Source of the DNA: Escherichia coli
GTDB taxonomy: Bacteria; Pseudomonadota; Gammaproteobacteria; Enterobacterales; Enterobacteriaceae
Strand: one strand, 5' to 3'
DNA length: 64,000 nucleotides
Assembly (NCBI RefSeq): GCF_044324785.1
Contig: NZ_CP172127.1
Of this stretch, positions 39,001-42,000 are shown one piece after another (within the stretch, counting starts at the first letter, position 1; each line of letters begins with the position of its first letter). A program made the position numbers.

Positions 39001-42000
39001 GGCATCGGAAAAATCTCATATGTGGTGGCGGGTATCTTAATTTTAGGCACCGTGGAAAACGCCATGAACCTGCTTAATATTTCTCCTTTCGCCCAGTACG
39101 TGGTTCGCGGCTTAATCCTGCTGGCAGCGGTGATCTTCGACCGTTACAAGCAAAAAGCGAAACGCACTGTCTGATGCTTTTTTCTGCAACAATTTAGCGT
39201 TTTTTCCCACCACAGCCAGCCGCCACAACGGTTGGCTGTTCTTCGTTACAAATGGCGACCCCCGTCACACTGTCTATACTTACATGTCTGTAAAGCGCGT
39301 TCTGCGCAACACAATAAGAAAAGAGAAGGAGGAGAACCGGGTGACAGAACCGTTAACCGAAACCCCTGAACTATCCGCGAAATATGCCTGGTTTTTTGAT
39401 CTCGATGGAACGCTGGCGGAAATCAAACCGCATCCCGATCAGGTCGTCGTGCCTGACAATATTCTGCAAGGACTTCAGCTACTGGCAACCGCAAGTGATG
39501 GTGCATTGGCATTGATATCAGGGCGCTCAATGGTGGAGCTTGATGCACTGGCAAAACCTTATCGCTTCCCATTAGCGGGCGTGCATGGGGCGGAGCGCCG
39601 TGACATCAATGGTAAAACGCATATCGTTCATCTGCCGGATGCGATTGCGCGTGATATTAGCGTGCAACTGCATACGGTCATCGCCCAGTATCCCGGTGCG
39701 GAGCTGGAGACGAAAGGGATGGCTTTTGCTCTGCATTATCGTCAGGCTCCGCAGCATGAAGACGCATTAATGACATTAGCGCAACGTATTACTCAGATCT
39801 GGCCACAAATGGCGTTACAACAGGGAAAGTGTGTTGTCGAGATCAAACCGAGAGGTACCAGTAAAGGTGAGGCGATTGCAGCCTTTATGCAGGAAGCTCC
39901 CTTTATTGGGCGAACGCCTGTATTTCTGGGCGATGATTTAACCGATGAATCTGGCTTCGCAGTCGTTAACCGGCTGGGCGGAATGTCAGTAAAAATTGGC
40001 ACAGGCGCAACTCAGGCATCATGGCGACTGGCGGGCGTACCGGATGTCTGGAGCTGGCTTGAAATGATAACCACCGCATTACAACAAAAAAGAGAAAATA
40101 ACAGGAGTGATGACTATGAGTCGTTTAGTCGTAGTATCTAACCGGATTGCACCACCAGATGAGCACGCCGCCAGTGCCGGTGGCCTTGCCGTTGGCATAC
40201 TGGGGGCACTGAAAGCCGCAGGTGGACTGTGGTTTGGCTGGAGTGGCGAAACAGGAAATGAGGATCAGCCACTAAAAAAGGTGAAAAAGGGTAACATTAC
40301 GTGGGCCTCTTTTAACCTCAGCGAACAGGACCTTGACGAATACTACAACCAATTCTCCAATGCCGTTCTCTGGCCTGCTTTTCATTATCGCCTCGATCTG
40401 GTGCAATTTCAGCGTCCTGCCTGGGACGGCTATCTACGCGTAAATGCGTTGCTGGCAGATAAATTACTGCCGCTGTTGCAAGACGATGACATTATCTGGA
40501 TCCACGATTATCACCTGTTGCCCTTTGCGCATGAATTACGCAAACGTGGGGTGAATAATCGCATTGGTTTCTTTTTGCATATTCCTTTCCCGACACCGGA
40601 AATCTTCAACGCGCTGCCGACATATGACACCTTGCTTGAACAGCTTTGTGATTATGATTTGCTGGGTTTCCAGACAGAAAACGATCGTCTGGCGTTCCTG
40701 GATTGCCTTTCTAACCTGACCCGCGTCACGACGCGTAGCGCAAAAAGCCATACGGCGTGGGGCAAAGCGTTTCGAACGGAAGTTTACCCGATCGGCATTG
40801 AGCCGAAAGAAATAGCGAAACAGGCTGCCGGACCACTGCCGCCAAAACTGGCGCAACTCAAAGCGGAACTGAAAAACGTACAAAATATCTTTTCTGTCGA
40901 ACGACTGGATTATTCCAAAGGTTTGCCGGAGCGTTTTCTCGCCTATGAAGCGTTACTGGAAAAATATCCGCAACATCACGGTAAAATTCGTTATACCCAG
41001 ATCGCGCCAACGTCGCGTGGTGATGTGCAAGCCTATCAGGATATTCGTCATCAGCTCGAAAATGAAGCCGGACGAATTAATGGTAAATATGGGCAATTAG
41101 GCTGGACGCCGCTTTATTATTTGAATCAGCATTTTGACCGTAAATTACTGATGAAAATATTCCGCTACTCTGACGTGGGCTTAGTGACGCCACTGCGTGA
41201 CGGGATGAACCTGGTAGCAAAAGAGTATGTTGCCGCTCAGGACCCAGCCAACCCGGGCGTTCTTGTTCTTTCGCAATTTGCGGGAGCGGCAAACGAGTTA
41301 ACGTCGGCGTTAATTGTTAACCCCTATGATCGTGACGAAGTTGCAGCTGCGCTGGATCGTGCATTGACTATGTCGCTGGCGGAACGTATTTCCCGTCATG
41401 CAGAAATGCTGGACGTTATCGTGAAAAACGATATTAACCACTGGCAGGAGTGCTTCATTAGCGACCTAAAGCAGATAGTTCCGCGAAGCGCGGAAAGCCA
41501 GCAGCGCGATAAAGTTGCTACCTTTCCTAAGCTTGCGTAAGTGCGGTTAATCTCCCGTAAGTGGAACTAACAGCACATCGACCTCACTTGAGGCAATCAC
41601 TCTTTTCGCCGAGCAGGATGCTCGCGAAAAGAAACTGTGATTGTGATTACCGCAAATCACCAAATCGAAATGATATTTGCGACAAACTTCCAGAATATGT
41701 TCGCTTAACTCACCGTAGGCAATAAACGTCTTGTCAACGGGATACCCCGCATCCTGAATTAACTTATCAAGAAAGCTTTGCGTTTCTTCCTGCATCACGC
41801 TGCGTAAATCTTCAAGCATCGGCGCAGCTAATTGATTGTACATTTCCGGGTCGGAAGCGAGAGTAATTAAACTGATGTGTCCCTTTACTGGCCTGGCGAT
41901 AGATACCGCTTTTGCCAGCAGTTGCTGACTTTCCGGTGTAACCGCAACGGCGACAAGAATATTGCTATAGCTCATAACCTGTTCCTTATTCTGTGAACTT

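Follow-up and report, generated by a model that had tools for sequence, protein, structure and literature searches.

Organization of the otsBA locus

We analysed a 64,000-nt stretch of Escherichia coli DNA (the window), in which the plus strand carries araG (36614-38173), araH (38185-39174), otsB and otsA (ending at 41540) in this order, with uspC on the opposite strand. The otsB coding sequence, for trehalose-6-phosphate phosphatase, occupies 39341-40141 on the + strand, starts with GTG and encodes 266 aa, an assignment based on RefSeq, NCBIfam NF007560, Pfam Trehalose_PPase and PDB 6UPB. In strain N3 as in K-12 MG1655 (b1897, complement 1981587..1982387), otsB is an 801-base gene in RefSeq and codes for 266 aa, which places the GTG at window position 39341. 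The 271 bases surrounding the promoter and start, 100% identical to strain N3, occur in 5417 of the 5426 complete E. coli genomes. From 39250 to past 39360, the window equals K-12 at every base. Only four SNPs separate the two, all upstream of 39250: three (39213, 39219 and 39226) lie within the araH terminator hairpin, and the fourth, at 39248, turns the TTGCAA of K-12 into TTACAA (39246-39251).

For comparison across genera, we scanned a single genome for each species, which yielded 48 loci, and aligned the upstream regions of 24. These 24 sequences represent Escherichia species, Citrobacter, Salmonella, Kosakonia, Phytobacter and one Enterobacteriaceae MAG, at least five genera in all. Erwiniaceae and Yersiniaceae are without the promoter described below; their otsB still starts with GTG or TTG behind a CAGGAGG-like sequence.

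A stem-loop (39212-39239) with the T-rich tail TCTTCGTTAC was found downstream of araH by terminator scan and covariation, the whole feature spanning 39212-39249 on the + strand. The scan reports 11 pairs, of which 7 are G-C. Across the 24 sequences, 93% of the cells are paired, versus 12-49% in slid controls, and compensatory changes occur at 6 of the 11 pairs. In E. coli, the U-tract (TCTTCGTT) is not perfect. araH lies directly upstream in Escherichia, Citrobacter, Kosakonia and Phytobacter, and a remnant of it is left in Salmonella. The stem-loop is most likely the intrinsic terminator of araFGH, and it should prevent arabinose-induced transcription from entering otsBA. No araH 3′ end appears in the Term-seq list of Adams et al. 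2021, as expected without arabinose induction.

The otsBA promoter carries a conserved extended -10 element

The sequence TCTATACTTA occupies 39273-39282, with T39273 at -14, C39274 at -13 and the hexamer TATACT at 39275-39280. The initial annotation had named a sigma-S-preferred C at -13 followed by TATACT, and both are read at these positions. It had also put the -10 element about 60 nt upstream of the otsB GTG; the distance from the last T of the hexamer to the G of the GTG is 61 nt. In the 24-sequence alignment, the element is part of the near-invariant GTCACACTGTCTATACTTA (39264-39282, + strand), which comprises the downstream spacer, T(-14), C(-13), the hexamer and TA. Further upstream, AAATGGCGA (39250-39258, + strand) is invariant or at least 90% conserved and includes the weak -35 box TGGCGA (39253-39258; -33 to -28), as placed by the alignment and by Stoebel 2009. 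This box shares 3 of 6 positions with TTGACA, and a 16-bp spacer separates it from the hexamer.

TATACT, C39274, T39273 and the GTG are each invariant in 24/24 sequences. A 12-nt run, TGTCTATACTTA, is likewise invariant in all 24, and with its flanks 19 nt are conserved at 90% or more. The longest invariant run in neighbouring araH is 8 nt (9 species) versus 12 nt in the promoter, and at third-codon positions of araH, E. coli is 46-55% identical to Citrobacter, Kosakonia or Phytobacter. The Shine-Dalgarno sequence AAGGAGG is also invariant or nearly so, and the leader that separates the -10 element from the Shine-Dalgarno sequence is scarcely alignable, differing in sequence and length among genera. 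As evidence from comparison alone, the alignment independently backs the published start site and start codon.

We compared the promoter with the class of sigma-S promoters that have an extended -10 element. The consensus of this class, reportedly put forward by Weber et al. in 2005, is KCTAYRCTTAA. Features of the class found here are a TAYRCT/TATACT -10 element, a -13C with T or G at -14, a weak sigma-70-type -35 box and a +1 located 6-8 nt past the hexamer. With class members such as osmY and yjbJ (the yjbJ promoter carries CTACACTTAA, of the same type), otsBA has in common T-14, C-13, TATACT and T at -6, as well as a discriminator rich in A/T and a -35 box that is weak or absent. It departs from the class in the discriminator TACAT, which is A/T at 4 of 5 positions yet has TAC after the hexamer where the class has TAA.

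Taken by itself, the motif says little. CTATACT occurs once in the 64 kb, against 2.7 occurrences expected by chance, which is not significant. The 9-mer CTATACTTA has its sole copy in the window here, with 0.11 expected and at least one match in 10 of 100 shuffled sequences. In view of these counts the bare -10 motif is weak evidence, and its weight comes from its position, its invariance across genera and published experiments. A literature search with the promoter sequence itself returned unrelated papers only.

Transcription starts within the upstream ATG and translation starts at GTG

Published numbering of this promoter counts from the start that Becker & Hengge-Aronis 2001 mapped and places translation at +56 (Stoebel 2009, PMC2744996). 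The same study gives TGGCGA as the -35 box, with the better TTGCAA immediately upstream, and locates an IS10 hot spot between +12 and +13 with the target GTAAAGC. Since the window and K-12 are identical over this region, the numbering carries over directly. With +56 at 39341, +1 is G39286, 6 nt past T39280, a position derived from the Stoebel numbering and not from raw mapping data. As a check of the register, GTAAAGC is found at 39290-39296 and the 9-bp IS10 target at 39289-39297; +12 is thus 39297, in agreement with +1 at 39286. K-12 otsBp is identical to the window from -36 to past the start codon, with the same TGGCGA, -10 element, +56 and GTAAAGC. One of the four upstream SNPs affects the cryptic better -35 sequence recruited by the 6-bp deletion of Stoebel 2009, which is TTGCAA in K-12 and TTACAA here.

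The ATG at 39284-39286 (+ strand) opens a longer, mechanically called ORF of 285 aa, and its G is the transcription start, as given by +56; it is not a functional start. It had been suggested from the sequence that this ATG falls at or before the start of transcription, and the landmarks of Stoebel 2009, transferred to identical sequence, bear this out. With +1 on its third base, the ATG is absent from the mRNA, and the 285-aa ORF cannot be read from that mRNA. We searched further data sets for start sites. The Peano 2015 supplement holds no otsB entry, the Cappable-seq tables in both coordinate versions have nothing near the otsB locus, and the ROSE supplement gave no match for it. One otsB start site was confirmed by RACE in Maciag 2011, where otsB is also described as "reported to be controlled by multiple promoters". 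Given the latter statement, a further start site upstream of 39286 is conceivable.

In Salmonella SL1344, the SalCom start site at 1983117 precedes the otsB start codon by 51 nt (Huesa et al. 2021, Table 2). The hexamer-to-GTG spacing is 58 nt in S. arizonae and S. diarizonae, which puts the Salmonella start 6-7 nt past TATACT, at a place equivalent to that in E. coli. The otsBA promoter of Salmonella enterica has the same invariant block, Shine-Dalgarno sequence and GTG. Its leader is unrelated in sequence to that of E. coli, save for a hairpin at the same place, and the upstream gene is the araH remnant.

The 5′ untranslated leader of the otsBA mRNA spans 39286-39340 (+ strand, 55 nt), as delimited by the Stoebel numbering, and contains the IS10 target and, by folding, a small hairpin. 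The Shine-Dalgarno sequence AAGGAGGAG is read at 39326-39334 (+ strand) with its AAGGAGG conserved in the 24 sequences, matching the earlier proposal that such a sequence precedes the GTG. Its GGAGG core (39328-39332) lies 8 nt ahead of the GTG at 39341-39343.

The GTG is in frame with the ATG 57 nt upstream, at 39284, and the ORF from the ATG (39284..40141) thus exceeds the 266-aa GTG form by a mechanical over-extension of 19 codons. The equivalog model NF007560 scores 539 bits against a cut-off of 327. All of its 266 positions (1-266) are aligned, to residues 20-285 of the long ORF, and the model begins at the GTG-encoded Met. Pfam Trehalose_PPase (PF02358) scores 193 bits, with the domain starting 17 residues past that Met, and HAD motif I (DxDGT) appears as FFDLDGTL at residues 18-25 of the 266-aa protein. 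The Salmonella OtsB chain of PDB 6UPB, 267 aa long, opens at the homologous codon. At least 1000 contigs carry the 266-aa sequence; deposits of the 285-aa form are few (EFK48639.1, WP_000114159.1 and others; 3 contigs). RefSeq, NF007560 and the unconserved extension agree that OtsB is probably the shorter 266-aa protein, as the initial annotation had it. The mechanical ORF track over-extends otsB, and some GenBank entries share the 285-aa form; RefSeq is correct.

RpoS dependence of otsBA expression

Published experiments were consulted for the control of this promoter. A plasmid-borne PotsBA-gfp fusion is induced by NaCl in rpoS+ cells and silent in ΔrpoS cells (Stoebel 2009, PMC2744996). In the same study, RpoS-independent otsBA expression arose only through IS10 pOUT insertions or a 6-bp deletion. 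This deletion came from a selection for otsB-lacZY up-regulation in ΔrpoS and puts TTGCAA at the -35 position; that transcription from it is RpoD-dependent was the authors' presumption. In Cho 2014 (Table S7), the log2 value for otsB is 12.1 in wild type and 7.1 in ΔrpoS, a loss of ~32-fold. Salmonella otsB has 832 versus 6 normalised reads in the rpoS wild type and mutant, respectively, or ~140-fold (Levi-Meyrueis 2015). Run-off transcription of otsB in vitro prefers E-sigma-S with a ratio of 1.56 according to Maciag 2011, where -13C is also said to favour E-sigma-S and A/T-rich discriminators are ascribed to sigma-S promoters. The stationary-phase and osmotic (sigma-S) control predicted from the sequence is thus in line with the gfp fusion, arrays, Salmonella RNA-seq and in vitro data.

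Taken together, we hold it very probable that 39250-39343 comprises the otsBA core promoter together with the 55-nt leader and the site where translation begins, under sigma-S control and directing synthesis of a 266-aa OtsB. The sigma-S promoter, short leader and GTG start of otsBA are already characterised and are textbook knowledge. We infer that selectivity for sigma-S at this promoter is due to the combination of -13C/T-14, a near-consensus -10 element and a weak 3/6 -35 box, as backed by the mutants that gained RpoS independence through a better -35. In the proposed mechanism, sigma-S RNA polymerase would recognise the extended -10 element (T-14, C-13, TATACT and the A/T-rich discriminator) together with the poor -35 box TGGCGA. 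The sigma-70 holoenzyme would use the promoter badly, and expression would consequently track RpoS in stationary-phase and osmotically stressed cells. Transcription would proceed from G39286, with the araFGH terminator hairpin upstream limiting read-through. Ribosomes would bind AAGGAGG and start at the GTG at 39341 to make the 266-aa OtsB, leaving the ATG at 39284, cut by +1, unused. The otsBA promoter is a widely used RpoS reporter. Its architecture also accounts for the rewiring of trehalose synthesis by an IS10 insertion or a repair of the -35 box in rpoS-null strains.

Alternative readings of the promoter and start codon

An ordinary sigma-70 promoter, whose apparent sigma-S dependence would be indirect, is very improbable in our assessment. 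TATACT is a good -10 element for sigma-70 as well, matching TATAAT at 5 of 6 positions. Maciag 2011 describes the sequences recognised by the two sigma factors as near-identical, and the E-sigma-S preference measured there is modest, at 1.56-fold. Against this stand the silence of the plasmid promoter-gfp fusion without rpoS and the initiation by E-sigma-S in vitro at an otsB promoter (Maciag 2011). The -35 box has just 3 of 6 matches to TTGACA, and a sigma-70 consensus scan of the region found no + strand promoter, as expected of a promoter with a poor -35. Moreover, a better -35 or an IS10 pOUT element was required for RpoS-independent expression (Stoebel 2009), and the -13C is present and invariant. 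Even less probable is that the real OtsB has 285 aa and is translated from the ATG at 39284 on a longer mRNA that stems from an upstream promoter or araFGH read-through. The frame is open from 39284, the long form has been deposited some times, Salmonella, C. sedlakii and one C. amalonaticus have an in-frame ATG at the corresponding site, and the mention of multiple otsB promoters in Maciag 2011 would allow for a longer mRNA. However, the mapped start is the third base of this ATG, no Shine-Dalgarno sequence is read upstream of it, and the covarying terminator hairpin separates araH from the promoter. NF007560 and PDB 6UPB both start at the GTG, and the 266-aa form prevails on the contigs. The N-terminal extension is frame-shifted, stopped or length-variable in relatives: Escherichia L006 has a 1-nt deletion in the leader that breaks the frame, E. 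albertii has ATA in place of ATG and is out of frame, and in Escherichia L007 and L011 a stop interrupts the frame 24 nt ahead of the GTG. The hexamer-to-GTG distance is 48, 58, 60, 61, 62, 70-73 or 79 nt, with in-frame stops present, and since these lengths do not differ by multiples of three, no reading frame is kept across the leader.

We also considered whether a further protein acts on the sigma-S promoter. From -36 to -14, the invariant arms AAATGGCGA and GTCACACTG surround a variable 5-nt centre, and these arms could form an operator for a dimeric regulator acting atop sigma-S, either a CRP-like repressor or the osmotic-shock activator proposed by Reg-Seq. Such an operator is unlikely. 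The pattern that suggests it, arms invariant in at least five genera around a varying centre, with an invariant run longer than any in the adjacent and highly conserved araH, is in large part accounted for by the conserved -35 and extended -10 elements without a further protein. GGCGA-N6-TCACA resembles the CRP core with two mismatches, and otsB is mentioned in a CRP genomic-SELEX paper. Yet CRP-like matches of like quality number 19 in the window against 27.9 expected, which is chance level, and the site is centred at -24.5, which is not an activating position. We dropped the CRP-site reading of GGCGA-N6-TCACA as evidence because of this chance frequency. According to a 2026 Reg-Seq preprint, the motif of its osmotic activator, derived from the yjbJ and ybaY promoters, has a high score upstream of otsBA. 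TCTGAAT and AAGCCAAA are common to those two promoters; the otsBA block has no 7- to 9-mer in common with either. In our comparison of the otsB promoter block with them, no shared stretch of 7 nt or more was found and the claimed otsBA motif match was not located.

Conserved block, leader hairpin and an internal RNA 3′ end

The conservation from -36 to -14 is unusually strict, beyond what the sigma-S class needs. Compared with the extended -10 class, the spacer and -35 box of otsBA are conserved across genera far more strictly than required. A small ORF of 13 codons beginning at 39252 (ATGGCGACC...) was considered and rejected; it lies upstream of +1, and all its codon positions are equally invariant. 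The block is a possible target for mutagenesis.

The leader hairpin consists of GCGC (39295-39298), a loop (39299-39303) and GCGC (39304-39307). Across genera, unrelated sequences form a hairpin at about +10 to +22, with a combined z of about -4.1 from 13 representatives that are not fully independent; the signal in E. coli is weak (z = -0.86), and the C. gillenii group lacks the hairpin. The fold of the E. coli leader alone is unremarkable (z = -0.25). An Rfam search of 39100-39600 at E <= 1 returned no family.

Within otsB, Term-seq places an RNA 3′ end at 39519 (+ strand; K-12 1982209, minus strand), 178 nt past the start codon (Adams et al. 2021, supplementary files 1 and 3), and this end is abundant in the same data. 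No terminator-like hairpin was found before it. It is doubtful, with a small probability in its favour, that otsBA is regulated beyond sigma-S, be it through the -36 to -14 block (by an osmotic-stress regulator or a dedicated contact with sigma-S or RNA polymerase), and/or through the leader hairpin and the +178 3′ end as a post-transcriptional layer. If such a post-transcriptional layer is real, it might for example control mRNA stability in the cold or give rise to a 5′-derived RNA of ~233 nt.

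Sequences around the otsBA promoter

We observed a stem-loop with a T-rich tail (39212-39249) between araH and the otsBA -35 box, and its stem covaries among genera, with 93% of cells paired and compensatory changes in 6 of the 11 pairs. This structure is probably the araFGH terminator. Salmonella keeps it, although araH is there reduced to a remnant of 92-137 aa. In E. coli FCI23 (L053, 2350-3010), a prophage with an invertase-like recombinase and tail-fibre genes has its boundary exactly at the upstream edge of AAATGGCGA, at a junction corresponding to 39249/39250 of the window, and thereby parts araH and the terminator from the otsBA promoter, which is itself intact. 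Such a split occurs in approximately 3 of the 5417 complete E. coli genomes that contain the sequence around the feature.

In K-12, a 6-bp deletion recruits a cryptic and better -35 element, TTGCAA (Stoebel et al. 2009, PMC2744996). The window strain has TTACAA at this element, in comparison to TTGCAA in K-12 (position 39248). Since TTACAA replaces TTGCAA, RpoS-independent otsBA expression by way of the 6-bp deletion may be weaker in this strain than in K-12.

Two kinds of putative regulatory site were also noted. For Salmonella otsB, an RcsB box has been predicted in silico at -267 to -281 (Huesa 2021); its counterpart here is TCGGAAAAATCTCA (39005-39018; -268 to -281), which lies within araH. 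The perfect CRP core consensus TGTGA-N6-TCACA occurs twice in the window, once upstream of the ara transporter genes (33672-33687) and once beyond uspC (42478-42493).

The otsBA leader and the otsB start codon

The leader contains a small hairpin (39289-39313; stem 39295-39298/39304-39307) that is weak in E. coli. In Citrobacter, Salmonella, Kosakonia, Phytobacter and one MAG, hairpins of unrelated sequence recur at the same position, with a combined z-score of about -4 across 13 representatives; in the C. gillenii group the hairpin is deleted.

The over-long 285-aa OtsB (39284-40141) has been deposited publicly as EFK48639.1, EGI45561.1, EGU98686.1 and WP_000114159.1, and also as WP_000114149.1; these records are a minor start-codon mis-annotation. 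We further found the K-12 allele of otsB, with its GTG replaced by ATG and the ribosome-binding site CTAAGGAGGAAAAA, directly 3' of a CHAP-domain ORF on two contigs from assemblies labelled Peptoniphilaceae RUMC2 (L003, 166-1243) and Brucella thiophenivorans DSM 7216 (L004). On both contigs this looks like contamination with an engineered construct, one that resembles the usp45>>otsB design of Lactococcus lactis. Since these contigs carry the short otsB, others evidently regard the short form as the functional gene.

An RNA 3' end within otsB

Term-seq places an abundant RNA 3' end at K-12 position 1982209 on the minus strand (Adams et al. 2021), which corresponds to 39519 in the window, 178 nt into otsB. 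A search upstream of this end found no terminator-like structure. Rho-termination regions are reported antisense to both otsB and otsA (Adams et al. 2021).
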